NCBI GenBank assembly: GCA_030704615.1
Contig: CM060733.1
Coordinates: 26,474,001 to 26,538,000, forward strand
Direction: 5' to 3'
DNA length: 64,000 bases
DNA from: Takakia lepidozioides
Lineage: Eukaryota > Plantae > Bryophyta
Shown: in pieces, positions 4,215 to 51,234 of the stretch
Position numbering within the stretch: position 1 is the first letter of the stretch
How the letters are laid out: every line of letters begins with the position of its first letter
Position numbers and translations under genes: made by a program
The notes under the pieces: model-generated
The model's database searches: none
Seen by the model: the letters and a program-made list of their open reading frames with translations, nothing else
What the model was told of the DNA's origin: nothing

Positions 4215-7200
4215 GGAAGATAATAGGAATAATGTAAGAACTTAATGCAAGCGCGTCAGGACGGTCCAGCCCTGACACCCGTACCGCCGGTTCTTCGCCT
4301 CCGGCAGACATCGAAAGACAACCGGCTGGGCTCGATCAATCCCTCCCCACCCTCGCCCTCATACCATCGGCGTCGTCGCCCCCTGCGTCGTCGTTCTGCG
4401 ACACCAGTCCGCCGCTTCCAGCAGTCCGCCAGTTCCCTGTAACCCCCGCCCCGGGTTCAACCATCACCCCCATGTAACCCTCTGTAACTCCGCCAAGTGT
4501 AACCCACACCACCATGTAACCCTCTGTAACCCATATAACCCCATGACCCTCTGTAACCCTCACCACCATGTAACCCTCTGTAACCCATGTAACCCTCTAT
4601 AACACCGCAGAGTGTCACCCCCACCCCTATGTAACCCTCACTACATGTAACCCTCTGTAACCCATGTAATCCTCTATAACACCGTAGAGTGTCACCCCCA
4701 CCCCTATGTAACCCTCACTACATGTAACCCTCTGTAACACTTTGCAACCAATGTAACCCTCTGTAACCCTCTGTAACCCATGTAACCCTCTGTAACATCG
4801 CAGAGTGTCGCCCTCACCCCTTATGTAACCCTCTGTGACCCTTTGTAAACCCTCACCACCATGTAACCCTCTGTAACACCGCAAAGTGTCACCCTCACCC
4901 GTATGTAACCCTCACTCCATGTAACCCTCTCTGACCCTCTGTAACCCTCACCACCATGTAACCCTCTGTAACCCATGTAACCCTCTGTGACCCTTTATAT
5001 CCCTCACCAGGTGTAACCCTTACCACCATGTAACCCTCAGTAACACCGCAGAGTGTCACCCTCGCCACCATGTAACCCTCCGTAACCCTCACAAACCCTC
5101 TGTGACACCGCAGAGTGTCACCCTCATCCCATGTAACCCTCACTCCATGTAACCCTCACAAACCGTCTGTGGCTCTGTAACCCATGTAACCCTCTGTAAC
5201 ACCGCAGAGTGTCGCCCTCACCCCTTATGTAACCCTCACTCCATGTAACCCTCTCTGACCCTTTGTAACCCTCACCACCATGTAACCCTCTGTAACACCG
5301 CAGAGTGTCACCCTCACCCGTATGTAACCCTCACTCCATGTAACCCTCTCTGACCCTCTGTAACCCTCTTATGTAACCCTCACTCCATGTAACCCTCTGT
5401 AACCCATGTAACCCTCTGTGACCCTCTGTAACCCTCACCACCATGTAACCCTCTGTAACCCTCTATATCCCTCACCAGATGTAACCCATGTAACCCTCTA
5501 TAACCCATGTAACCCTCTGTGACCCTTTGTAACCCTCACCACCATGTAACCCTCTGTAACACCGTAGAGTGTCACCCTCACCCGTATGTAACCCTCACTC
5601 CATGTAACCCTCTCTGACCCTCTGTAACCCTCATCACCATGTAACCCATGTAACCCTCTGTGACCCTCTATATCCCTCACCAGGTGTAACCCTTACCACC
5701 ATGTAACCCTCTGTAACACCGCAGAGTGTCACCCTCGCCACCATGTAATCCTCCGTAACCCTCACAAACCCTTTGTGACACCGCAGAGTGTCACCCTCAT
5801 CCCCATGTAACCCTCACTCCATGTAACCCTGTGACCCTCCGTGGCTCTGTAACCCATGTAATCCTCTGTAACACCGTAGAGTGTCACCCTCATCCCTTAT
5901 GTAACCCTCACCCCTTATGTAACCCTCACTCCATGTAACCCTTTGTAACCCATGTAACCCTCTGTGACCCTTTGTAACCCTCACCACCATGTAACCCTCT
6001 GTAACACCGCAGAATGTCACCCTCACCCCTATGTAATCCTCACTCCATGTAACCCTCTCTGACCCTCTGTAACCCTCTGTAACCCATGTAACCCTCTGTG
6101 ACCCTCTATATCCCTCACTAGGTGTAACCCTTACCACCATGTAACCCTCTGTAACACCGCAGAGTGTCACCCCCATCCCTATGCATCCCTCACTCCTTGT
6201 AGCCCATGTAATCCTCTGTGACCCTGCGTAACCCATGTAACCCTCTGTGACCCTGTGTAACTCATGTAACCCCATGTAACCCTCACTTCATGTAACCCTC
6301 TCTGACCCTCTATAACCCATGTAACCCTCTATGACCCTCTATAACCCTCACCAGGTGTAACCTTCACCACCATGTAACCCTAAATAACCCTCTGTAACAC
6401 CGTAGAGTGTCACCCTCACCCCTGTGTAACCTCACTCCATGTAACCCTCTATGACCCTCTATAACCCTCACCAGGTGTAACCTTCACCACCATGTAACCC
6501 TAAGTAACCCTCTGTAACACCGTAGAGTGTCACCCTCACCCCTGTGTAACCTCACTCCATGTAACCCTCTGTGACCCTCTATAACCCTCACCAGGTGTAA
6601 CCTTTACCACCATGTAACCCTAAGTAACCCTCTGTAACACCGTAGAGTGTCACCCTCACCCCTGTGTAACCTCACTCCATGTAACCCTCTGTGACCCTCT
6701 GTGACTCTCTGTAACCCTCACCAGGTGTAACCCTCCGTAACCCGTTTATCCCTCTGTAACACCGCTAAGTGTCACCCTCACTCCATGTAACCCTCCCATG
6801 TAACCCTATGTCACCCTCTGTAACCCATGTAACCCCATGACCCTCTGTAACCCTTCGTAACCCATGTAACCCTCTGTTACTCCGCGGGGTGTAACCCTCA
6901 CTCCATGTTATCTTGCATCGTGTAACCCCAATGTAAGCTTGTATCATGTTATCCCATATACCCCTCTCCGTGTAACTCCAGTTCCTCGTAACCCCATCAT
7001 CCCTATAACCCTCTGCACGTCAGCCCTTTAGCTCCGCCTCGTGTAACCCTCATTGTGCAACTCTCACATTGTAACCCCACCATGTAACCCCGATACTGTA
7101 TCAATCCCCTCCGTGTAACCCCCGATTGTGTCACTCATAGCTCGTGTCACCCCGGATCCTTTATCCCCAATGCATGTCACCCCTGTTCGTGTAGCCCCTT
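4215..7200 (+). repeat. Left long TIR: ~250-bp unique terminus plus TGTAACCC(TC)/GTGTCACCC minisatellite
   Basis: Dense array of TGTAACCC modules interleaved with ACACCGCAGAGTGTCACCCTC, ACTCCATG and ACCACCATG modules. Degenerates inward after ~6900. Confidence 0.92.
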
Positions 7201-7415
7201 GGTGCCCGGCAAAAATTGGCGGGCTCCAAGAGGTGTCAGATATTTTGAATTCAAACCTGGGTTACACGATTCGGTGACATCAAAACCCACGTGTAACTCC
7301 ATCATCGCTCGTCATTTTCACCAGGTGCGTAGACGACGTGCAGTCCCGAGGGCTCCGCTGCGTTGCCCGCGTGTGTTATGCGATTTGTACTGTACTAGTG
7401 GTACTGTTGCTGCTA

Positions 7416-10400
7416 ATGGCATGTGCTGCCGCGAAGGTGCTAGACGAGGAACGCAAAGCAGCATTGGAATCAAATGGTTTGAAAGATGAGGTGGGAGAAC
7501 TCTGTCATTTGCAGCATTTGGTATCTCATTTGAAATGCATCCTACAGCTGCCCATAGACGGGCTTTTCAATCACACAAACCTCCGTTGGATATGCCAGGT
7601 TTCCCAAGGAAAAGGGAAACGGATATCCATCGAAGTAGCTGTCGTTCCATGGTCTCGCATTCCTGATTTTCTGGAGGGAGAAAGGAGTAGAGTGGATGGG
7701 AAGACCCAATTTTATAATCAAGATCGAAGGTACCGTGAGTTGCCAGATTTGACAACACCGCGTGCAAACAGTTATTGTCAGTGGCATAAGTAAGTCACTT
7801 ATGAGGGTTGTATAACATTCCCAGCCCCACTTCTTTCTGCTAGCCTAGCAAAGTCGTATATGGCGATAACCCTCCTCGCTTTATATGCTTTTTTTGCAGG
7901 TACCACTGCTGCTACGGCCCGATAGATAGGCGCACGGACCCGCCAATTGTGAAGAAGAAAGAAAAACCGATAGCAGCCTCCGATAATCAAAAACCAGTCA
8001 AGCGAATCAGACGTAAGGCAGCGGATTTCGGAGAGTCATACAAACGTGGGTGTACGTGTAGCTTCAAAGTTGGCCAGTGTTTTCTAGATTCAGAGTTGGC
8101 AATCATCACATACTTCCAGAAACAACATGTAGATGCAAAAGGAAAGCCATGTCATGGTTCAGCTGACCCCTCTTCCCATTTCTCGCGATTCGTGCATGCC
8201 CCTCGTCTCAGCCAAGATATGAAACAGTGGATCGTCGATAGTCTTCGCAGTGGCCTATCTCCAGCTATGATTATGACACAACACACTCAACAGCTCCAGG
8301 AAGCTTATGCGTCTCAGCCAGGCATGGAGTGGAGTCGCGATTGTTTCTTGTTCGAGTACGACGTGAGAAACATTGTCGACAAGCTTGCGATTGAGAGTTA
8401 CAAAAAACATCCAGATGATGCACAAAGTGTACGTATGTGGGTCGATAGCAATCCTGAAAGCGTCTTCTTCTACCATGAAGAGACAGCGCCAGTGGCGGGT
8501 GATTTGAAGTTCGTAATTAGAATACAAACGGAGTGGCAAAAACAGAAAATGATCGACTTGGGACACAACCGTGTGGTATCCTGCGATGCAACATTTGGGA
8601 CCAACGAAAATAAGGTATTCGTGTCACGCTTTACCTTTCATTGCATTCTGAAATGTGAGTGCCATGCAACTGTTGCCAATATTATAACACTCACCTTATT
8701 CATTTTTGTACCATTGCGACATTGCAGTTCCCAATGTATACCATGATGGTGTTCGACGAATGGCTCAACGGCATACCTGTTGCTTATATTATATCAGCGA
8801 GAAGCAAAACGACTGACATGAGCCCCTGGATGAAACGTCTTCGCGACCGACTTCTTCAGAGCAAACCAGATTGGAGGCCAAATGCTTTTGTTGTCGACGA
8901 TGCAGACGCAGAAATCAATGCTATCAGGTACACGGCTAGAAGTTACAATGTTCTGAGTCACACAGTAATTCACACTACAAGTTGCATGCACGAGGGGTTT
9001 CATGGATCGGGCTACACTGCTGCTAGTTACACTGAGAATCATAGTAAGAGTTAAACTGCCAGTTACACGAGGGGGTGCATTGCTGCTTGTAACACTTGGA
9101 GTTACACTGTCAGTTGCTTGAGGGGTTACATGGATTGGGTTGCAGTGCTGTCTGTTACACTGAGGGTTACACTATCAGTTAGACAGATGGTTATACTGCC
9201 TTGAGTTGGACGGAGGGTTACACTGCTGTGAGTTAGACCGAGGGTTACACTGCTATGAGGTAGACAGAGGGTTACATTGCGAGTTACACTGGGAGTTACA
9301 CGGCGTGTCATCCGCAGTCCTGCATGGATTAGGTTGCACTGCTATAGCATGTGAGTTACACTGGGAGCATCGCAGAGGGTTGTATGGGTTGGGTCGCTCC
9401 GAGAGTTACACGGTGTAACATAGATTGCGTTACAGCGCTGCGAGGGGTTATATGTGTTGGGTTACACTGCTGTGAGTTTCACAGATAGTTACATGACCAG
9501 ATGCACGAGGGGTTACATGAGTCACACTACTAAGAGTGACACTTTGAAGAGTTACACTTCTACGAGTTACACTGCGAAGAGTTCCTCTGATAAGAGTTAC
9601 ATTGACAAGAGTTACACTGATGGATTGGGTGGCATTTTATGTGTGTGCGTGCAGGGAATCGTTTGGGGTTGTAGCGATATTTCTATGCCTTTGGCATGTT
9701 CGCCGCGCTTGGCTGAAACATTCGTGGCGTAAGATGCCCGATCCATACACTCGCAATGCTGTTTTGAAACAGCTTGGCGACGTAATGTACGGCATTAACG
9801 CCTGTGTGGGAGTCACCCCAGAAGAGTGGGCGCTGGAGCGACTGGAAGATTTGAATTATTCCTATCCGCTTGCGCGTGACTTCCTACGTTACATCAGAAT
9901 GGAATGGGTCCCAAAACTGAGCATGTGGATCACGGGGGCTCGTTATATTCCCCACGCAAGTCAGGATACTAATGCCGTAATTGAATCTTGGCACGGAAAT
10001 TTGAAGGCTCGTTTACGCTCGGGAAAGCAAAGGCTTGATGGCAGGAGAATCGATTGGCTGATCAGCGAACTCGTGGGTCCTGTTCTAACCCACTATTGGT
10101 ATAGAGATAACTTGAAATTGAAAGGCTTCAAAAGGAATGTACGACAAGAGGAATTTATCAGTAATGTTGTTTGGACTGCAAGGGAGATCCCTGATGTCAA
10201 TGTTCATTTGCCCACTGTTCCTGGTCATCCGGCGATTGTGGATAGTGTTCAAACGGCCGGTCAAAGCTACACAATCTATGTACCTGCGACCACCTGGGCT
10301 TGTTGCGATTGTCCATGGGCTTTGAAGGGTAACTTGTGCAAACATCAAATCCGCGTTCTTCAATTGATGAAGCCAAATCTGAAGGAAGGGCTTATTGTGA

Positions 10401-10801
10401 AGCTCTGTGGCACAAAGCTCGGGACCATTCATGGAGGTCTTCACATGTTGATGAAATCGGAACTTCCAGATATTGATGCAGAGGAGGAAGTTGTGAATCT
10501 AGCAGAGCCTACGGAGTGCTCAGCATCATCCCAGCGTGGTCGGCAGGAGCCATCGGATGTTTCATCAATTGAATCTGAGATGAAGTCCCTGTCGCTTCTT
10601 GGCAATGAGAGTGAAACAATGCGCAAACATTTGCTTGCCGAGCTTCGTTGTGTTCGTGGGAGGCTGTCCACTTTACAAGTTAGAATCGACAAAGGTCTGT
10701 TGCACCCTCTTCAAGCAATTCCATTCATAAAAAATGATGATGGAAACAACATGTCCCTTGCCAGGAAAGTAGATTTTGTAGACCGGTTCCGTAGTAAGTG
10801 A
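7416..10801 (+). CDS. MULE (Mutator-like) DDE transposase with C-terminal SWIM zinc finger, multi-exon, apparently intact
   Basis: GT-AG introns 7790-7899, 8615-8727 and 8928-9654 splice in frame (possible extra 57-nt intron 7491-7547; start codon uncertain). Motifs: KRGCTCSF...H (WRKY/FAR1-like), SCDATFGTN (D1), FVVDDADAEINAI (D2), LCLWHVRRAW (CxxH), TNAVIESWHGNLK (E), CDCPWALKGNLCKH (SWIM). Confidence 0.9.
8928..9654. repeat. Transposase intron filled with degenerate GGGTTACAC/AGTTACAC motifs
   Basis: Dozens of (G/A)GTTACAC copies, the same core as the TIR minisatellite. Confidence 0.8.
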
Positions 10802-11399
10802 CCATTGAGTCCATTGGCAATGACACTTATTTTGTGATCACCAAGTTTAATATGAAGTACATGTCTGTTCATGGGTTGTTATTCACTTTGCCATTCCACC
10901 CACATTCAACCTATGTAACCCACTCAATGGGACACCCATGGGCCGGGGTGACACACCGCAGGGTTACACTGTCTGGGGTTTCATAACGTAACATAGCTCT
11001 ACTTAGTGTAACTCGCATCTGTGGTACTCTACACAGTGTAACACAGATGAGTGTGAACCTCTTCAGTGTAACTCATTGTGGTGTAACTCCAAGTGTAACT
11101 GCAATGTAACTATCAACAGTGTAACCCAGTATGTAACCCGAGGTTTGCTATTTCATGAGCATGAGCGGCATGAGCGGCATGAGCGGCATGAGCAGAGTAG
11201 TAACACAATCGGTTTTCATGAGCAGAAGTACAAATTTCGAAAATAAAAAACAATAAAAAACAATAAAAAACAATAATTTAATGCAATGTGTCAGAAAAAA
11301 CAAATATATTATTCGGCCCCTTGAAGGGAAAATTGCACTTTTGACAGTTGTGCTCATGATATTTTGTCTTCCGCTCATGCCAATTCCTAGCGACATGTG

Positions 11400-11765
11400 C
11401 AAATATGGCGCCGAATTTCGCGGTAATAGGGTCCGTAACCTGAAAAAACGGCGACGTATTTCGCGGCAATAGGTCTCTCTGGCGAAAAATGGTGCCGAAT
11501 TCCGCGGCTATAGGTCCCCTCATGACAGGTAATTCGGCGCCATTTTTCCAGTGCATGTTCGGACTTAGCCAGTTTTCGGCCCAAAAAGAGAAATTCGGCG
11601 CCATTTTTCCAGACACGGTACCAGTGCATGTTGGGACTTAGCCAGTTTTCGGCCCCAAAAAGAGAAATTCGGCGCCATTTTCCCAAACACAGGTACCAGT
11701 GCATGTTGGACTTAGCGAGTTTTCGGCCCCAAAAAGAGAAATTTGGCGCCATTTTTCCAGAAATG
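11400..11765. repeat. Subterminal ~73-75-bp tandem repeats containing AATTCGGCGCCATTTT and GGACTTAGCC
   Basis: CAGTGCATGTT recurs at ~11549, 11622 and 11697. Shares both motifs with the 22.2-23.2 kb intronic array. Confidence 0.8.
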
Positions 11766-11916
11766 GCCCCAGAACTGCTTCTGTTGGATCTCAGTTTGAA
11801 TGGAATATTGCCTCATTCCAGGAGTTTTGGGGTGCATTTCATTACACTGCAAAAAAAAAGTCTGATACAGCAAAATGCATTTGAAAATATCCATATGGAG
11901 GATTCCGTTTGCCCCA

Positions 11917-14900
11917 TCAATGATTTCTGGAATCCCTAAGAAGGAGTTTGTGCAGCTCGTTCACGCTCAACGCCGGTGCATGAATAAAGTCATCAATAGT
12001 CACGTTCATCCTCAACCTCTTCAGGTAAATGTAATACAGATGCTTGCACGGATAATACTTCGAACCCTTCTTTGCTTCCATCAACGAGAAGTCCGTACAG
12101 TTGCAAGTCGGCTCCACTCCAATCGTAATTGTGTATACATCGTCGCGTACAGCCGAGCCGGCCGTTGCCATCCGATACACACGCCCAAGGCCGGGTGGGG
12201 GTACGTCCACGGAGCTCTGAATAGTGCAAGCCATCCCAAGAGCATTGGCAATCCGAGTCTCATTCAACTTGTTGGGAGGGTGTCGTCTCTTCACTCTTCC
12301 GAATCGCATTGTGGGATGTGCAGAATTGTCCAATCCGTCTCTACTGGACCGAGCAGTATGCAATGGCTGGGTCTGAGGAACCGGAAATGCGTGGGCCGGG
12401 ATGTCTGTGCGTTGCAACCATTCGAAATCCTGCTGCAGATAGAGCATCCGCCTCATTCTGAGAGAGGCTGCAACCCGGTGCAACAGGCCAGACGCCCGGA
12501 GGCTCCGGCATTCCCTGAATCCCGTACTTGGGCTTGCCAAATACACAGGTCATTATGTCGTGCCTACAGAACCAAAATGTCTGCGTTGTGGCGTGAGCAA
12601 ATGTGGGAGTCAAAAATCTGCCGCTGAAACAAGGTGCAGGTACAGCACCGTGTGGGTTCCTCCGAATCATCTCACCACAGCGTGCTCTCGTATCCACCCG
12701 GATGGCGCAACACTTCCCTCGAAATGCCGGCAATGTCCTCGCAATTCTCCACTGTGACTCCGACACTCTTGTCTCCACAATGGGAATGTTGTATTGCTTT
12801 ACTACAGATGGCTCGTTATGTTGCCGGGGCACGCGCCCTGTGCTCAAAGGAGATGGCGATCTTGAACGTGCAGGACTTCCGGTGCTCGACGAGACCTCCT
12901 CGGACAACATCACCGGACCACGAGGGAGCGTGCGAATATTCTTGTCAGCTCGCCATGAATCCTCTTCTCCGCCAGGTGCCTCGTCAAGTCTTCGTCTCAC
13001 TGGACGGGTATGAACATCTCCTTCCAAATGTTGGCCTCTTCGCAGCAATGGCGTGTCCCGAAGGCCCTCTCGCAAGGCCGCCGCCCACTTCCGAGGATTC
13101 TTCGATCTGGAGGCAGTCCGCATCAGCATTTCCTGCCTGTCCGGCCCCAAGCCCCACTGTTTCCCTTTCAAGAACTCGTTGTACCTGCATTGCTGCATAA
13201 TTGACCTCACAATGTCCTCCGTTGTGGCAGTGAGGATGTCCAACCAGATGCGCCGCAGAGGAGGCACGCCAGGAAGAGTGCACTGATTCGGCCATGTTTG
13301 TCGTGGGCATGTCGGTGTCGGAGTCGAGACACATTTCCTGCACAAGCACATGTTGAGGTTACAAGCAAGTTACAAATATGGCCAAGAATAATATCCAACG
13401 GGACGCGAATTCGTGCAACTCACCTCCCGCATATAGTCGCCGAACTGGAGGAAACGATAATGCCACCATGCTAGCCAACTGACCATTGCTCCTTCGTCTG
13501 ATTTCCTTACAGCACCTGACGATGTCCACCAAGCCCGTATGCATGCAAACTGTGTCTCTGCATCATCCAAGGTGGGAGCGCGCTTCCACGCAAGGCACAT
13601 GGAACGGTGCTCCTCTCTGAAATCTGGCGCCACGAGCCTGGTTGTGTACTGCGAAAGGCTCTGCAGAAAGTGGAACCCACAAGATCTCTCCTTGCCTTCC
13701 ATGGGAACATTGGGGTCTTGCCCGTACACCCTTCGGATGGCAGCCCAATTTGCTTGTGCGTTGTCCGCCATGAAACCACGGAAATTGGGAGGGGGCAATC
13801 CCGCCTTGGCCATCTGTTCGTTTATTCCCTGCCAAAGAAGCATCTCCGATTGTGTGTCCTCTCCTTTCATCTCACAAATAGCAATTGTCATTAGCATCCT
13901 GCAGTGGGTGTCGTAGACATGTGCACCCATTGTCACCCACTGGTGATTTGTAATTCGCTTGATATGGTCGAACATGACCCAACTGTTTGACAAGTTCCCA
14001 CTCGTCATCCTGTCGACCAGTTCGACGCCACTGCCAGGTCCACACGTGGACATTTTGAATACGAAACAACGATCTGCCTCAGTCCCTTGTCCTGGAAACC
14101 TACTTCCATGAATGTAGTCATATCCACATCGTCGCTTCACCTCCAGAATGGAGTGCATATCCGAGCCACGCCCAATTTTCTGTTTGCAAGAGACAATGTG
14201 GTTTCGGACATTCGGTGAACATACGTGGGACACCGACTCGAGCAATGCCTCCATTTCCTTCTCGTCGAGAGGAACTCTATCCGAGCCGTCTTCCGACATA
14301 ATTCTGGCCAATGCCATCTTATGGGCGGCTTGGAGCTGTATCTGTTTGGGTTTGGCACCCGGTCTCAACTTAACCTCCTCCTGAACGAGCTGCTCTGCTT
14401 CGTGGGCAGCCTCCCGCGAGTTCCCCCTCGCCAATTTGTGACAATGGGAACCAACGTGTATGCAAGCTCGGGTGAGGTCAGGGAAACGGTGCAACACATA
14501 GAACTGCTTGGCATTACAAACAGACATGCAGTGTGGTGGTTCTTTGCAATGCGCACACTTAAATGTGGAGTTCGGAACCTTCTCCTGAGCTCGAAATGGT
14601 TGGTGAGCTGTGCCTGTCCAATCGGTCTCGTTCTTGTGACCTCTGGATTTAAAGTGGAAGCAAGTTGGGGAGAAACACCGCAACGCGCCCGCACAAACAA
14701 CGTAGCGCACCCGCACACCATCAAGCATCTTCATGCTGGTGGTTTTGGTAACGCACCAAGGATGACCGTCATGTTTTCTATCCATATCTGTCAACATTCC
14801 GGACGCCCTCGAGTAGTCCGCCCGAGGAGGGAACTCAAAGAAGACATTACCGTCGACGTCGGCGGGAAGGCATGTAACCGATTTAATTGCGAACTTGCTG

Positions 14901-38142: not shown

Positions 38143-41100
38143 ATGAGTTCCCCTCGCCCATGCGGAGGACTTCCAATTAATCACCCCTGTAGACAGAACA
38201 ACCGGGATGACAGGTTGTGGGAAAGAGAAGTGGCACGTGCCCGAGCCCTTGGGCTTTCAAGGATGCCATGCCCATGTGAACGTTGTTTGGGCACTACAAG
38301 TAGATCTGAGGACGGTGTGCGCACACATCTCCTTCACCACAAAAGACATGAAGCATTTCGGGTGTGGATTGGAGATGGACCTGCAGACGAAGACGATGAG
38401 GAGTGGGCACAATTGGACAATGCACACCCCCGAGGGAGCCATACAGACAGGCCAGACGAGGACTATGTCATGGGCGCAGGACAGGAACCAGGCATGGACG
38501 GAGGGGTGGAGACACTCGGAATGTTGCAGGAAGCATTCCACATCACATCATGGACGATGCTGAAGAGGGGGACGGCGCTGCGACAACTGGGGATGGTGAT
38601 GACGCAGGAAATGAAGGCATTCACGTGGGGGAAGGCGTGGAAGGAGGTGGAGATGGAAATGAGAATTCTGCACACATGACACTAGAAGAAGCATGTGTGC
38701 CACTGTACGAGGGATGCAAATCCACAAAGCTTGCTGCCAGCATGCTGTTGATGAACCTGTGCACAACCCACGGTGTGTCAGACCATTTTGTGGACGAGTT
38801 GTTCTCTTTGCTTCGGCTGAACTTGCTTCCACAACCAAATGAAATGCCAAAAAGCTGTCACATGGCCAACAAAATGATTGGGAAGCTCGGCCTCAACTAC
38901 GTGAAAATACATGCATGTCCAAAAGGACATGTACTTTTCAGAAGAGAGTACAAGGACGCTATGGAGTGCCCCAAATGCGGTGCAGCCCGATACCATGATG
39001 TGGGCAGGTTACAACAGCCAGCCAAGGTGTTGAGGCACTTTCCCCTTATCCCCCGTCTATTACGAATGTACAAATGCAAGACCATTAGTGAGCTCATGAC
39101 TTGGCATTCCAGGAATGCCTCAAACGATGGTTTGGTAAGGCATGTCCCAGATTCCCTTGCATGGAAGCATATAGATGCAACTTGGCCCGATTTCGCCGAG
39201 GACCCACGCAATGTGCGATTGGCTGTATCTACGGATGGAGTAAACCCATACGGATCAAAGAGTTGCACATGGTCCACATGGCCCGTGCAGTTGGTGGCAT
39301 ACAACCTGCCACCATGGTTGACAACAAAGAAATTCTTTGTCATGTTGTCTCTCTTGATTCCAGGCAAGGAGTCCGTGACAAATGCAAACATAGATGTGTA
39401 TTTGCAACCATTGATTGAAGAGCTACAGGAACTATGGATTGGAGTTGAAGCTTACGACATTTTGAAACCAGTAGGGCAACGGAGTTTCACCCTCCGTGCC
39501 ATACTCATGTGGTCAATCCACGATTTCCCCGCATATGGCCTTGTTGCGGGTTGCAAGACGAAGGGCTACAAAGGGTGCCCCATTTGTGGGCCCTATGTGG
39601 ATTCACGGCACTCAAAGCCATTAGGGAAGACAATATACATGGGGCATCGACGTTACCTTGCAAGAAACCACCCCTACCGACGAGCAGGCCGACACTTCAA
39701 TGGATGTGTTGAAAAGAGAATGGCACCAAATGCTGTGACACCGGAGGAGACATTGCAATTTGCAAAGGAGAAAGAGGCGTTCATGGAGATTGGAGGGAGA
39801 GAAGGAAGTAGTGCGGATCCAGCCATGTCGCACGGGGTGAAGCGCCGGACAATCCTTTGGGATTTGCCATACTGGAAGGTGCATGAATCCCCCCCCCCAT
39901 TCACTCACTTTCTTTCACATTGTGCTTCCTGGAATTACCTTTACTGTCAGGAGTCCTTCCACCAACTCCTAAGTCAGTGTAACTACTATGCAGTAGATGT
40001 TGAAGTCGTACACCTCACTGTGTAGAGGATCGTGCAGTTGTTGAAAGCAGAATGTAGTAACATGGACAACTTCTGCCACATATTCTACTATTTTTGCCCA
40101 TAGAACTTGGTCTCATGGGAGGACATTTGGCATTTCAGAACCTCTTGCAGCGGTACCTCCTGGACCCCATGCATTGTGAGAAGAACTTCTGCGAGAACAT
40201 TCTGAAGACTATCTTTGGGGAGAAGGATACGATAAACGTACGAAAGGACATGGAGATTGAAGGGATACGGTCACATCTGTGGCTAAGGCCTGATCCAAAT
40301 AGACCAGGCAAAGTGCTCATGCCAGCAGCATCATACGTCCTGACCAAATCAGAGCAAGAGGAATTTTTGAAGACATTGGGAGCCATGAAAGTGCCAACCG
40401 GATTCTCGGGTGCTTTCCAAAAGCATGCCATAAACAAGAAATGGTCGGGGATGAAGTCACATGATCTACACGTGATGATGCAGCAGATTTTGCCAGTGTG
40501 CATTCGGGGTACGATGGCGTCGGGTCCTCGAACAGCCATAATGCGTGTAAGTCGAGTGTTTAGGAAGATTTGTGCGAAGGTGTGGGATCCGAGGGACATT
40601 ACATCGCTGCATGAGGATGTGGCTGTGACCCTATGTTTGCTGGAGAAAGAATTCCCTCCATCATTCTTTGACGTCATGACGCACTTGCTAGTGCATCTTG
40701 TAGAGGAGCTGCATGTGTGTGGGCCCGTAGCCAGCCGTTGGATGTACCCCATGGAGAGGTACATGAAGGATCTGAAGGGGTATGTACGCAACATGGCACG
40801 GCCAGAGGGGAGTATGGCGGAGGGCTACATCCGCGACGAAGCCCTGGGCTTCATGACAGAGTATATGTCTTCATTTGATGCAATACAACGACGGGTGTGG
40901 GACGAGAACGAGGAAGAAGGAGTTGTAGGCGAGGTCCTAGAAGGTGGTGGAACAAAGCGTGCCATGAGCCCGCGCCTTCGGGATGTGGCACATGATTATG
41001 TGCTGAACAACACAACAACCATGACACCATGGAGACAGTGGGTGTAAACTTTACATCCCTCCTGTGCTATTCTTAATGGTCTTTGTATGCATGAATTACA

Positions 41101-42220
41101 TATATATTGTCACAAGTCATTCCGGCCACTATGGGAGTGGGATCGTGTACTAACAGGGTGCTTCAGACGACAACAGAGGGTGTTTCGTAGTTGGTGTTGT
41201 TGCTTGCAAGTGATCATGAAGTAGGCTGCATCACTACAATGTGCTTGAAAGGACACACTCTACATGTGGCATGCATGTACAGTACGGTGTTGGTCAGGGG
41301 GACTGAGTTGCAGCTTCTATTTGGTTTCTGCCAGAAAATACGCAGCGGAGAAGGTCCGCCTGAAAACGGAACGGAGAGCATTTGCAAAAGCATGGCGGAG
41401 GGGCGGTCGTAGGCGCAGATCCCCGGTGGAGTACCCGACAACAATGGAGGAGCTGCAGCCCTTTACAGTGTGGGTCAGATCTGCAATTGCAGTGTACGCA
41501 TCAGAGAACGAGGACCCAGATGAGGGCATGGTGAGTCTGTCATTCCCCCCAGGGCTGATTGCCACTTCGTACCGGTCAATGAAAGCATATGGCAATCACT
41601 ATAGAGTGGACGATGCCAACACCAGCCTCCTGGTGACTTATGACAGCGGAGTGGCATCATTTTTTGAACAAGAGAGTAGGAGCTGTGCACGAGATCGGAA
41701 TCCAATTTCATGCCATGTGCAATATGTAGGAGTGATCAAAGAGATCCTTAAACTAGACTATGGTCTTGTGAAGCCAATTCTATTCCGTTGTTCTTGGGTA
41801 AAAGCCAATATGGTAGGAGAGAATGCCACCATGAAACGGGATGAGTACGGGTTCCTCCTTGCTGATTTCAGAAAAATGCTACCACAAGATGAAGAGCCAT
41901 TCATCTTCCCATCGCAAGTTGAGCAAGTTTTCTTTTCAGATGACATCCATGCGCCGGGATGGAAGGTGGTTCTTCACAAGGACCCCCGGGCCAAACGAGT
42001 CGTTGCCGACGTCCATGATCTGGACCTAGGGGAGAATGCCGACCACGAGGGTCTGAGGGAACCACGAAATCTACCAGATACGGCCGAACCAGTCTCTTTG
42101 GAAGGAGCAGTTACCTTTAATGAGGAAGACATTCCAGGGTTGGTAATTACCGCCAGGCAAATTGCAGATGTGGGTAGTGAAGGGGAAGATTATTTGGATA
42201 CGGATAGTGAGCCCAGCTGA
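38143..42220 (+). CDS. CACTA TnpD transposase (Transpos_assoc, Transposase_21, DUF4218, DUF4216 order); one apparent frameshift near 38545
   Basis: MPCPCERC...HL; KIHACPKGHVLF...CPKC; DSLAWKHID...DPRNVRLAVSTDGVNPY; YNLPPW; HDFPAYG; LDPMHCEKN; GMKSHDLH; FPPSFFDVMTHL; RWMYPMER; EPFIFPSQVEQVFF. In-frame introns 39879-40138 and 41038-41334. Confidence 0.93.
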
Positions 42221-43773
42221 ATCTCAGTGTCCATTAAGCCAGCAGCTCATAGACGAGAGCTATGCTAAGGACTCTTACTGTCCTTAGAACCCATTTTGTA
42301 CAGTCCTGCTTATAAGCAAGGGCGAGACAGTTAATAGTATCGATAATGTATGGGTATGTGGTCACTGACTGTCTTGTGAACAAACCTTTTTTTGTTCTGC
42401 CCATATTGTTTCTGACATGTGAGGAGAGGATCGTCTTCATGTACGGGAAGTAGACGTGAATGTGTGCATGCATTTTCTGGCCCATCTGCATGCTTTCCAG
42501 GAACAAAGACCAGTGGAATGGGGGGTGTCTCCAAAGGAGCAGGACCGAACGACACCTTTTTGTGCTTCCCTTGCTTTCCTTCTCACCGTTGTTCCATTCT
42601 CCCACCTGCCCAACAGCAGCACTCTCGAAGCAATAGCATGACATATGTTCGCACATGGTCTTCTTCACCAGTGAATGAGCTTTTATGCTACATGTACTGC
42701 CCCGTCCACATTAACGTTGATCCCTGCAAGCACTTGGCAAGACACCCCAGAGCCGCAAATCCAGCAACCACCACAAACACATCTAACTGATTGTAGTGAC
42801 ACGGGAATAGCTCACTTGTAGAGGAATTGAACCTCCAGCCAAATGAATGGCTCTGCCCCTTGTAGCACAAGTGCGATGCAAAAACAAGGTGAGTACAAAA
42901 TGAAGAAGCACTTACGAGGTCCCCATCCCTGGGATGGGCTCCCACTTCTGCTCTGGAACTGTGCAGGCCTGAGTAGCACCAAATTGCATGAATCCTAAGC
43001 CTGAATGTCAAATGCAGGTTTATGTCGCGATGTAGCACGCCATCATCTTACCTGTAGTTTCCAGTTTCACTGGTGTCACATTTGCCTTCAAGTCAACATC
43101 AAAATTAAGTCCACCTATGCGCAAATCGCAGAATCTCTCATGACACCATCTGCGTACCGAAAAACTGGTTTGGCATGATATAATTGTAGTTCACAACCTT
43201 AATGAACGCTTTCAGCCTTTACCTCTCCGTGCGCTCCATCGTGCCTCCATCCAGCACATTTGTAAATGTTGAATGACCAAGAACCCGATGTCACACCGTT
43301 CTGAGAAGCCACTACGCGCGCTCACAGTATACGAAGGCCTTGCCGTGTCAGGATTTGCATTCCCACGTCCCGCCATGTCCGACGCAGCACTTGCATCCTT
43401 GCCAGACAGGCCAGGTGGAGGCAGCATGTATTAAAATATCTATTCCCCCAAGGCCACATTTTGTTTACCTCTTTTTGTGAAAGCCACGTCAGCAAATGTG
43501 CTGCCGAGTCATGGGTGCAATGAATGCGCAGTGGTTCATGGAGTCGTTGAGTCGACTACATATTCACTTTAATGAATAAATATCTTTATTCCATTAATCG
43601 AATTAGGAATGAAAATTTGTAGTCGCATGTGCAGTAATTACAACCACTTGCAATTTTGGCTTTTTCAAATTTTGTCTGTTTCGACTCTCCAGTAGTCCCG
43701 TTTACTACCAAGTGGTTCCCGGAGTGGTCGCGGACATGCAGTCGATTCGAAAAAGACACGAATGCTTCTAGTG

Positions 43774-46700
43774 CCTGTCAGTGTCACCCTTCTGTTCAAA
43801 CCCCTTGTCACGCTTCTTAGTGTCACCCTTCTCTTCGGCTACCTCCTCAGTGTCACGATTCTCAGTGTCACCCTTCTCTTTGGCTTCCTTCTCAATGTCA
43901 CCCTTCTCTTCGGCTACCTCCTCAGTGTCACTCTTCTTAGTGTCACCCTTCTCTTCGGCTACCTCCTCAGAGTCACGCATCTCAATGTCACCCTTCTCTC
44001 CGGCTACCTTCTCAGTGTCACTGGTCTCAGTGTCACCCTTCTCTTTGGCCGCATTATCAGTGTCACTCTTCGCAGTGTCACCCTTCTCATCGGGTTCCTT
44101 CCCAGTGTCACTCTGCTGAGTAACAATCTTATGTGTGTCACCCTTGGCAGTGTCTAGATGCTCCGCAACATCCTTCTCTTCGTGACTCTCCACAGTGAAA
44201 CGCTTCTCAGTGTGACCCTGCTTTGTGTCACCCTTCCAACTGACAACCTCCTCGGTGACACCCTTCCCCGTGTCACCCATGTCGATGTCACTCTTCTTTG
44301 CATCAACCTCCTCAATGCCATCCTTGATTGTGTCACCCTTCTCTGCACCCTCCAAGACCGTGTTGACTAGCGGAAGACCGTCATCCATCGCGACTAGTGG
44401 CCGTGGCAAAGGAGTGTCACCTTCCATGACTAGTGGTAGTGGAATGTCATCCATGACAGTGTTACACTCACTGACATCTACCATGTGGGTTGGCTGTGGG
44501 GTGTCACCCCTATCAGTGTAACCCATGTCAATGTCACTCTCAACGGAAGTTGCAGTGTTCACGGGCAATGGTGTGTCACCCACGACAATGTCCCTCACGA
44601 CATTGTCAGCCACGCCGGTATCCGCAGTGTCACCCTGAGGTGCAGTGTAACCCTCCTTCCCTGTTGCTCCTCTCTGCACAGTGTCACCTTGAGGTGCAGT
44701 GTAACCCTCCTTCCCTGTTGCTCCTCTCTGCACAGTGTCACCCTCAGGTGCAGTGTAACCCTCGGTTTCAGGGCATCCTCCCTTTGCAGTGTCACTCTGC
44801 GCATCAATGGGATCCACGAAGGCTGGGTCATTCTGAGAGAGGTTGACCACATGATCCTGACAAAATACTTACATTTCTGCATCGAGGGTTCAACCCAGCA
44901 TCTCCAGATTCAAAGTCATACACAGACTCTGGGTCAAGCGGGTCCCCGATTCTTCGATTAAGACCTTCAAAAGAAATGACTGGGGCTGCGGACAAAGAGG
45001 TTCGCACTTGGGTGTTCCACCTTGATGTATCATCTTCAGTATCAGTATCAGAATTCATGGGCAAATCCCGCGTCAAGTCTGCTAGGTTCACCCCTAAGTG
45101 CAGCTGGGTTGAGTACAATTCACCAACCTGCGACAAAGATACAACGACAGATTGACTTGGAATGATGTCCTCGTCATGTACATCGTCGCTCTGCGGGGCG
45201 GAAATTGGCCCATCGCTCGTCTGCGCGCCCCCTACGCCCCCTGTATCGCATTGTGGAGGGGCCCCATACACAACTTTGTGAAGCTCACGTTGAGCCTCAA
45301 AAAGGTTTTTGAACGCATTGGCGACTTGATTGGCCATGAGCTCGGACTCATCTGCATCGGGGAAAAGACAAAGGTTTTTAGTCGTGGAACAAGGTTTTTG
45401 AAAGTGCAAGGGTTACACTGACTAGGACAAGACAGTGGTTCGGATTACACGATGTGGGTTACACCACCCTGTTAGAGACAGTAGTTTGCAATGGGTTACA
45501 CTACCATGGGTTACACTACTGAGATTACACAACGAGAGGGTAACAAATCTAGGGTAACACAGCGAGGGGTACCATTAGGGGTACACTGATTACAGGGTTA
45601 CATACTCCGAGGGTTACACTGATTACAGGGTTACACACAGCGAGGGTTACACTGAGTACAAGGTTCCACATAGCGAGGGTTACATTGATTACAGGGTTAC
45701 ACACAACAAGGGTTACACTGAGTTACAAGGTTCCACATAGCGAGGGTTACAATGATTACAAGATTACACACAAAGGGATTACACGACGAGAGGGGTGACA
45801 GTGGATGGAGTAACACTTACAGAGATACCAAGGCACTACAGACCCAAGGTCTCTCATATACTGGATGCCCAAACGCGCATTGAAGTCCATTTCTGTTGGT
45901 GATTCGCTGAAGAGGCCACAACACCAAAGCTGGATAAACGATTCTCTCTGTTAGATCGCAAAGTGATGGGCGGCGCGACAACGGCTTGCCTTGCAAAACT
46001 GTATAGCTCCGTTGATCTTAATTGACCGGTCACCCCACTCTTCTGTACTCAAACTCGATCTTAAGTCTTCGAGCTCAGAATCCAAGGTCGCAATTCCGTC
46101 ACCAGGTTGTGCAAAGTACATCAGACTAAAGCCGTAATACTCATCGACTAGGTCCTTCACCTTTGAGGCCGTAAGAGCACTTTCCAGAAGTTCAGTCGTG
46201 AACCCCAACCTGGGATGCGTTTGGGAAACTGACCTGCCATGATTTCTTACATCGTTGTGGGCCAGAATTCTCAAAAGGAGTGGTGGCGGTCCAATGTGCG
46301 GTTTGGTGAGATTCTCCATTTGACTGATCAATCCTTCGGCAAAACCACGAGTGAATTCCAACGGATCTGGAACAACCAAACCTTTGATTCCATCTACAGT
46401 AATAGTGATGACAAGAGGATTTGAAGTTCTGGCATCGTCAAGGTCGGTATTGCCAACAGCTAGTTCGTCCATCGTGTCATCATCATGTGAGGCTTGGCTC
46501 TCTCGATGGACTCGTGTAAGTCTCCCACCTTTTTTCTTTTTCTGCTTTGGCATGTCAGGATGCCCAATGCTCTCTAAATACTCCTTCACCCGATTCAATT
46601 CCTCTATCATTAACGGACCATGATCCGGCTGGGCAGTAAACGCCTTGTGGGCAGCAACAACACTGTCCATATCATCGCTTCTAAGATGATATCGAGCTCC

Positions 46701-47770
46701 CTGCGCAATACAGCGTGAGGGGTTACACCAGAGAAAAAGTTACAGCACGAGGGGTTACACATGAAAATGGGTTACAAACAAGATGGGCTACACAGGGTTA
46801 CACAGAGGTGGGTTACACACCATAGGGGTTTTTAAAAGGGGTCCTCTGTAGGTGGGTTACACTCTGGGTTACACGCCACATGAGAGACAGGGGGGGTAAC
46901 ACAAGGGGTTACATGGATAGACAACAACCCAAAATTTGAAAAACAGAGAAATGGCAAGGAATCCAACTTGATTGTCTGTCGATAGGACCCAACTTGATTT
47001 TGCAGCTGTCGCATAGACTGCACCCTCGCCTCGCGCAACAAATTCTTGGAATGTCGGCCAAAACCCCTTCTATTGACATTCGGAAATGGGAACTGAGGAA
47101 TAAGGCCATGCGGTAGCAGAAGGATTGAGCCTGGAGTTCGCTTTCGCAAGATGAACCTTGAGCTCCGGTTTCCCCGGTTTCCAATGTTGATTTTCCTTGC
47201 AATAGGGACAGGTAGAGGCGGGCTCAATCGCCGCTTGTCTCTCTCGTTAGAAACCTGCCGAATAGAAGGACCAGGGACAGAAACAGCAGGAGCACCGGAA
47301 GATGGAACCTCTGTAGCAGAAATAGCCGAAGAAGGTACAACAGCAGGCACTTCAATAGGATCTGCAATCTCACCCAAAGCCACCCTATTTTGCAGAATCC
47401 ATGCATGATATGCATCAACAGAAGAAGCTGGAACAGAATTCATCACATTTTCAACAGCCATGGCATGCTTGAGCTCCGCATCAGGAAACGGTTTTGTTCC
47501 TTTCGGTCTGGCCATACATGCGGTCGTTCCATCGACAATATGCCGATTCAATCTGCTCTTATCTACCTTTACTGCCCCACAATAAGGACATTTGAACTTA
47601 GGCCGGCCCTTTGCTCCCTCCACCTTGGCCTCTCTACACCTGGTGTGGCAATACGCGATCATTGTAGCATGCTCATGCTCAGTGTACCAGAAGCAAACTC
47701 GTTCGCCATCCCTTTTCAAGTGATCAAATGGAATAGTAGCCTCTCCAGGGAACAAATAACAATCAGCCAT
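43774..47770 (-). pseudogene. 5' half of the outer element's second gene: C2H2/C2HC-like zinc finger, unknown domain, acidic GDT/GYT repeats (continues at 28341)
   Basis: FKCPYCGAVKVDKSRLNRHIVDGTTAC. Collinear - strand ORFs 46832-47869, 45951-46670, 44828-45409 and 43768-44850 are separated by GGGTTAC-rich introns or frameshifts. Removing the CACTA gives in-frame ...KGDTDRGSTEEVSCDT.... Confidence 0.7.
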
Positions 47771-49084
47771 GACAAAAGAAAAAGCTGACAAAAGAGAAGA
47801 GAAGAGCAAGAGCAAGAAAAGACAAGACAAGAAAAGACCAAGACTAAGAGAATTCCGAAGAACGCACAACAGGGAGCACGCACAGCAAGGAGGGCAGGAA
47901 GAATATGAAAGGCTGCGAGAAGGGGAAAACTGAACAATGATTAAAGAACGAAGAACGAAGCTAGCTAGATGTCACCCGTAAGGCACGTCGGTTAAGCGAA
48001 AGACGACGGTTCATTAAAATCTGGCGGCTTGCAATCAATTATATCCGCACTGACTCACACGTGTATGAGTTGCAATCCCGGTGTCACCCGTAATAACGGA
48101 GTGTAACCCGTAACCCTACACTTGTGAGCGCGACAAACCGGCCGTTACCCGCATGCCAGGCACGTCGAGTGTAAACCCTCCGTCAGGTACCCACATATGA
48201 TGTAACCCTTCGTCACAACCTCATGTACCCCTAGTCTATGTGACTCCCGAACACAACATCGATATAACCCTATCATATCAAACCATTAGTATGCAACCTC
48301 CAGGTAAACATGGTCAATGTAATGCCCCACCCATGTAACCCTAGCCTATGTGGCTCCGCGAGCGCAACATCCACGTAACCCATCAAACATGTCAACCCCA
48401 TCTAAACCTCCATTACTAAATCGTCTACCAAGCTAGCATGTATTGAGAAAGAAAACACCGTGTAATCCCCTGTGTGTAACCATAGCACACGTGAGGTAGT
48501 CATATAAACCATCATACATGTAACCGGTTGACAGTGCTTGCAAAACACGCATGATTCGATACGTATTGCATCCATAATAGCGATGAGTAGGCTGCCCCGG
48601 CTGGTGTGTGAACAAAAGATACACGAGAGGAGAGTGAATGGGCACCCCGTCAAATGAGCGGCTGCTTGCATGGCTAGACCGAAAGAAACAAAACCCTTTC
48701 CTAATGCGGATCTTAGGAATACCATAGCCATCGGGGACGGTGACAAAACAACAAGAATGACATTGAGAAAGAAAAAGAATAGAGACAACCGTATCAATCG
48801 TAGAGAAAACCGTAGTAATAGATTTGACGGATTGCTGCGCGGAAAGCGTTGTCTTGTATGTTGCTGGGATGACGATACTGAACTGAATGAACTACAAATC
48901 CTTCGCATTGATGTGTGAAGCCGATTGGGCACCATGGAAATTGCAGAAAGCTGATGCCCCAAAGCAAAAAATCGAGCGAGTTAGGAATCTGAAAAACGGA
49001 TGGAGAGAGCAAATTAGGGTTTCGGCCTCTATTTAAACCTCCATTCGGCCGTCGGATAATTTACACGTGTATGATGTACACGAG

Positions 49085-51234
49085 GCGGTGTTACAGAGGG
49101 TTACATGGTGGTGAGGGTTACAGAGGGTCAGAGAGGGTTACATGGAGTGAGGGTTACATAGGGGTGAGGGTGACACTCTGCGGTGTACAGAGGGTTACAT
49201 GGTGGTGAGGGTTACAAAGGGTCACAGAGGGTTACATGGGTTATAGAGGGTTACATGGAGTGAGGGTTACATAAGGGGTGAGGGCGACACTCTGCGGTGT
49301 TACAAAGGGTTACATAGGTTACAAAGCCACAGAGGGTTTGTGAGGGTTACATGGAGTGAGGGTTACATGGTGGCGAGGGTGACACTCTGCGGTGTTACAG
49401 AGGGTTACATGGTGGTAAGGGTTACACCTGGTGAGGGATATAGAGGGTCACAGAGGGTTACATGGGTTACAGAGGGTTACATGGTGGTGAGGGTTACAGA
49501 GGGTCACAGAGGGTTACATGGAATGAGGGTTACATAGGGTGAGGGTGACACTCTGCGGTGTTACAGAGGGTTACATGGTGGTGAGGGTTACAAAGGGTCA
49601 TAGAGGGTTACATGGGTTATAGAGGGTTACATGGAGTGAGGGTTACATAAGGGGTGAGGGCGACACTCTGCAGTGTTACATAGGGTTACATAGGTTACAA
49701 AGCCACAGAGGGTTTGTGAGGGTTACATGGAGTGAGGGTTACATGGTGGCGAGGGTGACACTCTGCGGTGTTACAGAGGGTTACATGGAGGTAAGGGTTA
49801 CACCTAGTGAGGGATATAGAGGGTCAGAGAGGGTTACATGGGTTACAAAGGGTTACATGGTGGTGAGGGTTATAGAGGGTCAGAGAGGGTTACATGGAAT
49901 GAGGGTTACATAGGGGTGAGGGTGACACTCTGCGGTGTTACAGAGGGTTACATGGTGGTGAGGGTTACAAAGGGTCACAGAGGGTTACATGGGTTAGAAA
50001 GGGTTACATGGAGTGAGGGTTACATAAGGGGTGAGGGCGACACTCTACGGTGTTACAGAGGGTTACATAGGTTACAGAGCCACAGAGGGTTTGTGAGGGT
50101 TACATGGTGGTGAGGGTGACACTCTGCGGTGTTACAGAGGGTTACATAGAGGTAAGGGTTACACCTGGTGAGGGATATAGAGGGTCACAGAGGGTTACAT
50201 AGGTTACAGAGGGTTACATGGTGGTGAGGGTTACAAAGGGTCATAGAGGGTTACATGGGTTACATGGAGTGAGGGTTACATAAGGGTGAGGGCGACACTC
50301 TGCGTGGTTACAGAGGGTTACATGGGTTACAAAGCCACAGAGGGTTTGTGAGGGTTACATGGAGTGAGGGTTACATGGGATGAGGGTGACACTCTGCGGT
50401 GTCACAGAGGGTTTGTGAGGGTTACAGAGGGTTACATGGTGGCGAGGGTGACACTCTGCGGTGTTACAGAGGGTTACATGGTGGTAAGGGTTACACTTGG
50501 TGAGGGATATAGAGGGTCACAGAGGGTTACATGGGTTACAGAGGGTTACATGGTGGTGAGGGTTAAAGAGGGTCAGAGAGGGTTACATGGAGTGAGGGTT
50601 ACATACGGGTGAGGGTGACACTCTGCGGTGTTACAGAGGGTTACATGGTGGTGAGGGTTACAAAGGGTCACAGAGGGTTACATGGGTTACAGAGGGTCAC
50701 AGACGATTACATGGGTTACAAAGGGTTACAGAGGGTTACATGGAGTGAGGGTTACACTCTGCGGTGTTACAGAGGGTTACATGGGTTACAGAGGGTTACA
50801 TAGGGTTACATGGGTTGCAAAGTGTTACAGAGGGTTACATAGGGGTGGGGGTGACCCTCTGCGGTGTTATAGAGGGTTACATGGGTTACAGAGGGTTACA
50901 TGTAGTGAGGGTTACATAGGGGTGGGGGTGACACTCTGCGGTGTTATAGAGGGTTACATGGGTTACAGAGGGTTACATGGGGGTGATGGTTGAACCCGGG
51001 GCGGGGGTTACAGGGAACTGGCGGACTGCTGGAAGCGGCGGACTGGTGTCGCAGAACGACAACGCAGGGGGCGACGACGCCGATGGGATGAGGGCGGGGG
51101 TGGGGAGGGATTGACCGAGCCCAGCCGACTGCCTTTCGATGTCTGCCGGAGGCGAAGAACCGGCGGTACGGTGTCAGGGTTGGACCGTCCTGACGCGCTT
51201 GCATTAAGTTCTTACATTATTCCTATTATCTTCC
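49085..51234 (-). repeat. Right long TIR: GAGGGTTACA minisatellite plus unique terminus (inverted copy of left TIR)
   Basis: Same modules in reverse complement. 50975-51234 is a near-identical inverted copy of 4215-4470 (ORFs 4245..4442 + and 50944..51204 - start alike: MQARQDGP). Confidence 0.92.

Follow-up and report, generated by a model that had tools for sequence, protein, structure and literature searches.

Two nested Mutator-like DNA transposons in the bryophyte Takakia lepidozioides, here called A and B, each carry one short word of their own clustered through their introns, spacers and upstream DNA. They lie in a stretch of 64,000 nucleotides (assembly GCA_030704615.1, contig CM060733.1, positions 26,474,001 to 26,538,000 of the forward strand), which we call the window and number from its first letter. 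We observed the distribution of both words, the layout of the genes around them, the ParB/Srx fold of a protein domain encoded by B together with splicing of its gene, and a linkage between the palindromic word of B and that ParB-like gene in relatives; from these we infer protein binding, candidate readers for the word of A and a possible effect on methylation. B is likely a ParB/parS-like self-recognition system. For both elements we see about an even chance that the clusters are docking platforms for a self-encoded protein by which the element would recognise its own copies, probably for transcriptional upkeep.

Distribution of the words in elements A and B

Element A (4215-51235; about 16.9 kb once its two insertions are subtracted) is bounded by terminal inverted repeats (TIRs) of 223 nucleotides, identical at 214 of 224 columns, and by a 9-bp target duplication with one mismatch; it runs past 49100, where the finding of an earlier reading made from the letters alone, here the sequence-only reading, had stopped. 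The TIRs lead into inverted subterminal arrays of 2-2.7 kb, the left one (4438-7130, plus strand) with 108 GTAACCC, none of them in the terminal 223 nucleotides, and the right one (49086-51012, minus strand) with 84 in inverted orientation. GTAACCC or GGGTTAC matches 258 times in the window, and 192 of these matches fall in the two arrays (41.6 per kb). Internal non-coding DNA of A holds 56 in 5072 nucleotides (11.0 per kb, with 0.6 expected) against 1 in 5743 nucleotides of its ordinary exons (0.17 per kb); the Fisher p of 2e-15 for non-coding versus coding DNA is overstated, as clustered sites are not independent. Four more lie in a 1022-nucleotide repeat exon of A, none in the 14678 nucleotides of B, one in the 15432 nucleotides of a CACTA insert and three in the 16979 nucleotides outside A, the last remaining match being the right target-site copy of B. 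Exact-match counts over the window thus found clusters at all the places where the sequence-only reading had named them and the drop that it described inside both insertions. The density is likewise bounded by the element ends: 500-nucleotide windows across the borders of B gave 8|0 relaxed motifs at its left end and 0|10 at its right. A de novo search with the TIRs excluded returned TGTAAC or GTAACC as the top 6-mer in seven of the eight internal segments tested.

The introns of A were modelled from open reading frames only (GT-AG). All four long ones (727, 469, 293 and 216 nucleotides) hold the word, and none of the five short ones does. Intron 3 of the transposase gene (8928-9654, plus strand) carries 7 strict and 17 relaxed motifs in an array that differs among other copies (single-contig joints, run X3); the 3' spacer has 4 strict motifs in its left part (10802-11139) and 15 in its right part (25826-26858); three introns of the accessory gene, all on the minus strand, have 4 (27264-27479), 12 (45352-45820) and 8 (intron 1, 46701-46993, whose donor is one among several candidate sites). 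A further cluster of 5 strict motifs lies upstream of the accessory gene (48041-48520) and is possibly an intron of the 5' untranslated region; near 49020, TATA-like and telobox-like words directed inward were noticed by eye. The internal clusters match the TIR arrays at best at only 71-85% over 30-121 nucleotides and are therefore not recent copies of them. A role in splicing was rejected, because the orientation of the word varies relative to the transcripts; being unrelated to transcription, it would act as DNA and not as RNA.

The proposed restriction to non-coding compartments stands for the ordinary exons of A and for the exons of B, and breaks down in one exon of A (43775-44796, minus strand) that is itself built from the motif. 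Besides its four GTAACCC this exon has 16 GTCACCC, and its 25 relaxed matches share one reading frame that yields a KGDT/EGYT peptide repeat, in which each of the 16 Gly-Asp-Thr triplets is written GGT GAC AC.

Element B (11140-25817) sits inside A with an 8-bp target duplication, TGTAACCC, and its two ends were verified by contigs with different flanking DNA. Its word, ATTCGGCGCC/GGCGCCGAAT, has 69 matches at 50 distinct sites: 54 between the divergent genes, 11 in one intron and 4 in the 3' spacer, with none in the exons or TIRs of B and none in the 49322 nucleotides outside it. This one word recurs in five unlike unit lengths, namely 74-bp units in the 3' spacer (11407-11760), 287-, 53- and 139-bp units in the intergenic palindrome arrays (15800-18760) and ten 95-bp units, each with the motif, in an intron of the accessory gene (22166-23248, plus strand), across which the frame is open and over whose junction the homologue P0185 aligns (E 4.5e-4). 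In the 53-bp array the word ATTCGGCGCC forms the middle of a 22-base palindrome; the motif makes up one half of a palindrome with a 10-base core, TCGGCGCCGA, that is conserved in distant relatives, the arms alone being family-specific. The claim that the word of B behaves like that of A is correct as to its confinement to the non-coding DNA of its element and wrong as to the termini: the word of A doubles as the unit of the TIR arrays, whereas that of B is absent from its TIRs, which are built on a different word, GCATGAGC. A and B both have the VANDAL-like layout attributed to them, one short word in introns, spacers and upstream DNA in unlike repeat units. Not every nested element is bar-coded, as had been supposed, since a de novo word search of the CACTA insert (28343-43774, in the accessory gene of A, with a 3-bp duplication CCT) found no internally repeated word, and this insert serves as a negative control.

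Further repeated words of B are GAATTACCTGC (in 53-, 31- and 139-bp units) and GGACTTAGCC (in 74- and 95-bp units), which together occupy 16463-18755, 11525-11760 and 22200-23230. Many single-base indels in the arrays at 17000-18760 suggest long-read errors or decay. The target duplication of B (11132-11139 and 25818-25825) is exactly the motif of A, on one copy of which B landed; targeting of that motif was rejected as unproven, the chance of such a coincidence being about 1.4%, yet other ends of B having unrelated flanks.

Genes of the two elements and relatives of B

The accessory gene of B (19069-25596, plus strand) encodes a ParB/Srx-fold domain (20399-20941), a helical middle and an amino-methyltransferase-like domain (about 24080-24900), and two of its introns are spliced out in one contig of the probable RNA run X12. 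Predicted from 102 sequences, the ParB domain reaches a predicted local distance difference test (pLDDT) score of 93.9, against 34.6 from the single sequence. A VIA search with this model returned ParB/Srx-family chains in all of its top nine places, KorB first (Z 7.8, root-mean-square deviation 2.5 over 89 residues), and Foldseek ranked Noc, PadC, Srx and ParB highest, all with E of 0.001 or more. Identity to ParB/KorB structures (PDB 8qa8, 7ol9, 6ryk) is 9-17%, and the GxxR motif reads DGNHR. HMMER gave 503 matches with this domain; a word-indexed search gave none, and Pfam returned no ParB match. The C-terminal domain has no Pfam match either, and its Atlas features match N6_N4_Mtase (PF01555) clusters at 0.93 (25 of 30 matches); its motif IV precedes motif I in sequence, and the motif for S-adenosylmethionine (SAM) binding is kept. 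Active beta-class amino-methyltransferases have a catalytic motif IV that ends in Tyr or Phe (D/N/S-P-P-Y/F type). That aromatic residue is absent from the B family, in which motif IV reads DIPD in the window, in the majority copies and in the probable RNA contig; the relatives, with four variants seen in all, have DVPF (P0138 only), DFPI and DGPN. Judged from these residues, catalysis by the accessory protein appears doubtful. The frameshift directly after motif IV belongs to the window copy only, other copies and the run X12 contig being free of it, and more generally other copies lack the frameshifts at 12416, 13242, 24127, 24963 and 28056. The transposase gene of B (11917-15511, minus strand; DDE, CxxH and SWIM) has two one-base frameshifts in the window copy and 64 homologues at 35-42% identity; a GCM-type DNA-binding domain suspected in it by eye was unconfirmed on checking.

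A metagenome scan for relatives of the B transposase retrieved 80 of 385 loci, of which the 42 of at least 7 kb were analysed, leaving 29 representatives after removal of near-duplicates. These are old AT-rich copies (GC content 0.27-0.41); a search of viral contigs found no relatives of B. A ParB-like gene, in most cases transcribed divergently from the transposase gene, is present in eleven of the 29, and two more have a methyltransferase remnant only; the ParB-like gene is kept near the transposase at transposase identities of 29-46%. A deamination-aware scan detected clusters of decayed palindromes compatible with TCGGCGCCGA in 9 of 11 ParB-positive and 1 of 6 ParB-negative loci (p 0.035), the negatives counted being those with at least 7 kb upstream; twelve shorter loci were omitted, among them L043, with a cluster at its contig end. 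Grouping by any accessory remnant gave 10 of 13 versus 0 of 4 loci (p 0.015). None of fifteen control C/G cores formed clusters in more than 1 of 12 loci, and no cluster arose in the Markov controls. Every form of the clustered palindromes at L073 is derivable from the core in the window by C-to-T and G-to-A change. The arms vary by family (GGAAAT in the window; CCAACTT, CCAAA(C/G)T, GCTTCTT and TATRG elsewhere) and sort by ParB clade (support 0.87 and 0.84), and the intron array of the relatives occupies a different intron from that of the window. On sequence comparison, a 10-base non-coding core maintained across unlike units, introns and 29-46% protein identity would be hard to explain without a binding protein. 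The palindrome spacings common in the window (16463-23220) and at L031, L058, L073 and L075 (53, 74, 85, 95, 51, 105, 116, 127 and 189) lie near whole helical turns, which is only suggestive (p 0.003 for 29 per-locus, 0.09 for 17 pooled distinct and 0.18 for 10 window spacings). Separate family-specific repeat clusters, probably subterminal, were seen in the relatives away from the palindromes (L010, 16870-17585; L031, 15290-16100; L043, 7708-8537; L058, 17463-18023; L066, 2957-3549).

The transposase gene of A (7416-10801, plus strand) has four exons, and its modelled GT-AG introns yield a single open frame of 811 residues with D-D-E, CxxH and SWIM. SWIM was the single match in a Pfam scan of the Mutator-type transposases in the window, for A at E 0.0011 and under the cut-off, and the catalytic residues were identified by eye; the sole named homologue of any transposase in the window is from the liverwort Riccia sorocarpa. 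Convergent with this gene is the accessory gene (26859-47770, minus strand), which is interrupted by the CACTA insert, open for 1032 residues in its 5' part and frameshifted in its 3' part. It encodes an N-terminal C2H2-like finger, a middle domain, the KGDT repeat and an Ulp1/C48 protease domain (zf-C2H2_4 E 0.006 and Peptidase_C48 E 0.011, both under cut-off, with His/Cys motifs identified by eye). Scanned exon by exon, the middle domain had no Pfam, PDB, Atlas or homologue match, DUF1985 and DUF287 included. Relatives of A were found neither in viral or prokaryotic contigs nor among the 80 fetched loci. A degenerate inverted paralogue of the zinc-finger region (48616-48732, plus strand), identical at 20 of 39 residues and carrying a stop codon, sits between the upstream motif cluster and the right TIR.

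The ratio of observed to expected CpG is 0.88 and 0.87 in the transposase exons of A and B, 0.59 in the transposase of the CACTA insert, which arrived later, and 0.52 in host exons, and it ranges over 0.69-0.88 in A and B; this weaker depletion is compatible with reduced germline methylation, for which it is weak evidence. The summed contig depth of B is roughly 70-fold that of A in run X3 and again much the greater in X6, and although depth is not copy number this suggests that B is a very abundant family.

Several points weigh against the interpretation of the clusters as docking sites for accessory proteins. The Z score of the ParB model is middling and would establish fold, not function. 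The sequence-only reading proposed to compare related families for co-divergence of motif and accessory protein; the arms group with the ParB clades and also with the transposase tree, so that co-descent would fit as well. As the palindrome and the ParB-like gene are neighbours, their linkage could also be explained by shared descent or shared deletion. Kinship among the loci means that they do not count as independent (L021 and L072 have sequence in common), the shortening of the core from 12 bases to 10 came after L025 had been inspected, L027 and L041 have the ParB-like gene with one strict site each, and L077 has kept a methyltransferase remnant with no sites. Family history and codon use are confounders of the CpG ratios. 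Most departures of the window copy of B from its family majority are C-to-T or G-to-A changes, and 14 of the 23 changes listed for A and B combined are in CG or CHG context; such deamination-type changes indicate that the copies still appear methylated at times. Homologue searches found no relatives of the accessory gene of A.

Around the two elements, the CACTA insert has Tnp2 and Transposase_24-like frames, a NIF/FCP1-like phosphatase frame (30484-31656, minus strand; Pfam NIF E 8e-13), reverse-transcriptase-like pieces on both strands (33365-37300) and inverted duplications (33381-33483 to 37186-37288; 34059-34175 to 36677-36793). A itself interrupted an outermost non-autonomous CACTA element (about 3916-52070), which remains as 3916-4214 and 51236-52070 and has its own subterminal word, GCGACG, in 16 copies. 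A decayed relative of the A transposase was judged by eye at 561-1755 (plus strand), and no enriched word was found in 1-3900. At about 54.6-60 kb lies an intron-bearing host gene with a WD40 domain match, which we take to be coatomer alpha; upstream of it, a small GGGTTA-rich cluster with two GGGTTAC (54230-54330) may indicate a host factor for the word.

Candidate readers and rival explanations

The accessory protein is the likely reader of the word of B. Dimers of its ParB/Srx-fold domain would settle on the palindrome, with its TCGGCGCCGA core and arms particular to the family, chiefly in the stretch that separates the two divergent promoters and after the manner of bacterial ParB or KorB, and would there control both promoters and keep the element active. 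The methyltransferase-like domain, without the catalytic aromatic residue, would more probably shield or read DNA than write a mark, and relatives with DVPF may still methylate. The pairing of the ParB-methyltransferase protein with this motif, already proposed by the sequence-only reading, gains support from the comparison of loci, and the conserved-core palindrome resembles ParB/parS more closely than a fast-changing private barcode. What is left of the corresponding pairing of zinc finger-Ulp1 with GTAACCC is residence in the same element: it gained no further support, no relatives were found and the transposase is no less plausible a reader. As the word of A doubles as the subterminal-array unit, both proteins are plausible; we place the transposase somewhat short of an even chance and the zinc finger-Ulp1 protein a little below it. 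Intronic clusters would fit an accessory reader, by analogy with VANDAL21 as far as the available text describes it (PMC5735166).

That the transposase reads the word, which would make the word of A its subterminal binding unit, with the internal clusters as additional places for synapsis or for activation of the element by its transposase, is a serious contender, if a little less than evenly probable. It accords with the 192 of 258 GTAACCC in the subterminal arrays and with the AtMu1 transposase, which alone binds and activates its own copies in Arabidopsis; in the text available, however, AtMu1 binding and hypomethylation are confined to termini (bioRxiv 10.64898/2026.08.24.746577), whereas the clusters of A fill introns of both genes, and the palindrome of B is missing from its TIRs and from most transposase-only relatives. 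Host factors could instead be recruited, giving open chromatin or cell-cycle expression with no reader of the element's own: a trihelix protein on GTTAC, telomere-repeat binders on GGGTTA and E2F on the GGCGCC-centred palindrome. B has 1.8 matches per kb to the E2F consensus, WTTSSCSS, and the DNA outside it 0.3-0.5, but one exon of B reaches a density (2.8 per kb) similar to that of the intergenic DNA (3.1), and B has a high GC content. Arabidopsis GT-3a does bind GTTAC in an electrophoretic mobility shift assay, according to the accessible part of PMC10873892. A host site, however, needs neither family-specific palindromic arms nor tracking of the ParB-like gene, and the words of A and B are nearly missing from the host flanks, so that we regard recruitment of host factors as unlikely.

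A writer role for the accessory protein of B, with N4-cytosine or N6-adenine methylation placed on the palindromes and host 5-methylcytosine blocked by this mark, is similarly improbable. The Atlas match, the kept SAM-binding motif and P0138 with DVPF speak for it, and marking by a methyltransferase has been proposed for algal elements (PMC12477816, in the portion available); DIPD in the B family, majority copies and probable RNA contig included, and DGPN and DFPI in other relatives speak against it. Neutral slippage or gene conversion in tolerant non-coding DNA would account for the changes in array copy number between copies, and the TIR arrays could seed internal ones. This we consider very improbable, since one core recurs in five unlike units of B and in relatives from another, AT-rich host, the internal clusters of A are not recent TIR-array copies, and clusters are missing from the CACTA insert, which lies in the same chromatin.

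Extending the docking of self-encoded proteins further, we speculate, with low confidence, that the Mutator-like elements of non-seed land plants have two VANC-independent anti-silencing systems: in B a ParB/parS clamp on family-specific palindromes that would spread over its own transposon, a disarmed methyltransferase fold shielding CpG-rich DNA from host 5-methylcytosine, and in A a zinc finger-SUMO-protease fusion that would dock on TGTAACCC clusters and locally desumoylate silencing proteins. VANC, reported from dicots only, is the best-worked transposon protein that lifts silencing sequence-specifically, and if unrelated proteins go with a like DNA layout in a non-seed plant, the arrangement would have been invented more than once. 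The algal ParB-methyltransferase idea is in print as a proposal only, in the parts available (PMC12477816; bioRxiv 10.1101/2025.02.11.637652). What our locus contributes is a spliced gene, an abundant family and a defined site; with these, tests of binding, CTP dependence and effects on methylation can be made directly, and a programmable chromatin-targeting pair might result.

Comparison with known systems

A and B resemble VANDAL/VANC in layout, B without membership and A without a detected VANC domain. Among VANDAL proteins VANB is Ulp1-type, and A also bears an Ulp1-type gene and a tandem peptide repeat. The published systems are compared here on the available parts of their texts. VANDAL21/VANC21 and VANDAL6/VANC6 of Arabidopsis accumulate a motif in the non-coding DNA of Mutator-like elements (PMC5735166; PMC10398659), and A and B share with them the accessory genes, the short motif in introns, intergenic and terminal non-coding DNA, its locally single orientation and its dynamic tandem repeats. 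The transposases are Mutator-type, and the duplications of 9 bp for A and 8 bp for B are inside the range of 8-11 bp (PMC6446971). Unlike VANDAL accessory genes, those of A and B have no DUF1985 or DUF287 match, and the accessory protein of B has another fold than VANC, ParB/Srx with an amino-methyltransferase-like domain. VANDAL TIRs are degenerate, whereas those of A are long and near-perfect; the VANDAL motif switches completely among related families, whereas B shares its core and varies the arms alone. VANC has been described as dicot-specific and MAIN-like (PMC13547354).

Algal elements resemble B in their accessory proteins, and B has the features compared for this group, a ParB-like domain, an N4-cytosine/N6-adenine methyltransferase-type domain and a gene opposite the transposase with adjoining inverted-repeat arrays. 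Sola1-1_Ec32 of Ectocarpus encodes a protein with ParB-like and N4-cytosine/N6-adenine methyltransferase domains, on the strand opposite the transposase as in B, and the protein is proposed to bind and to modify its own transposon; it belongs to the Sola superfamily in a brown alga, and 'palindrom' is absent from the main text (PMC12477816). B, by comparison, is Mutator-like with an 8-bp duplication, lives in a land plant and has DIPD at motif IV. The Plavaka accessory genes PAG2/PAG3 of red algae encode a ParB-like domain and adjoin tandem inverted-repeat arrays, with self-binding proposed (bioRxiv 10.1101/2025.02.11.637652); like B they place a ParB gene beside such arrays, and the same cassette has a PF01555 methylase, but their ParB is fused to a 2-oxoglutarate oxygenase and their methylase to a SET domain, the elements are EnSpm, and a conserved core with family-specific arms is not described in the text available.

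Bacterial ParB/parS and KorB/OB share with B the ParB/Srx fold, the GxxR motif and clustered long palindromes, and differ from it in that B is at 9-17% identity, has no ParA and fuses a methyltransferase fold. Spm TnpA and the AtMu1 transposase are self-activators through dense family-specific motif clusters (bioRxiv 10.64898/2026.08.24.746577, text available in part); a dense family-specific motif and an element protein as its reader are common ground, but their binding is terminal, and the clusters of A and B also occupy introns. Already known from brown and red algae, with the same proposal and as far as the available texts go, are ParB and methyltransferase accessory genes and ParB beside inverted-repeat arrays. 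Literature searches, with subscription journals outside their coverage, found no land-plant report of ParB-methyltransferase transposon accessory genes. This locus adds a site definable by its constant core and varying arms and found in linkage with a ParB-like gene, together with a second element of like layout in which no VANC domain was detected.

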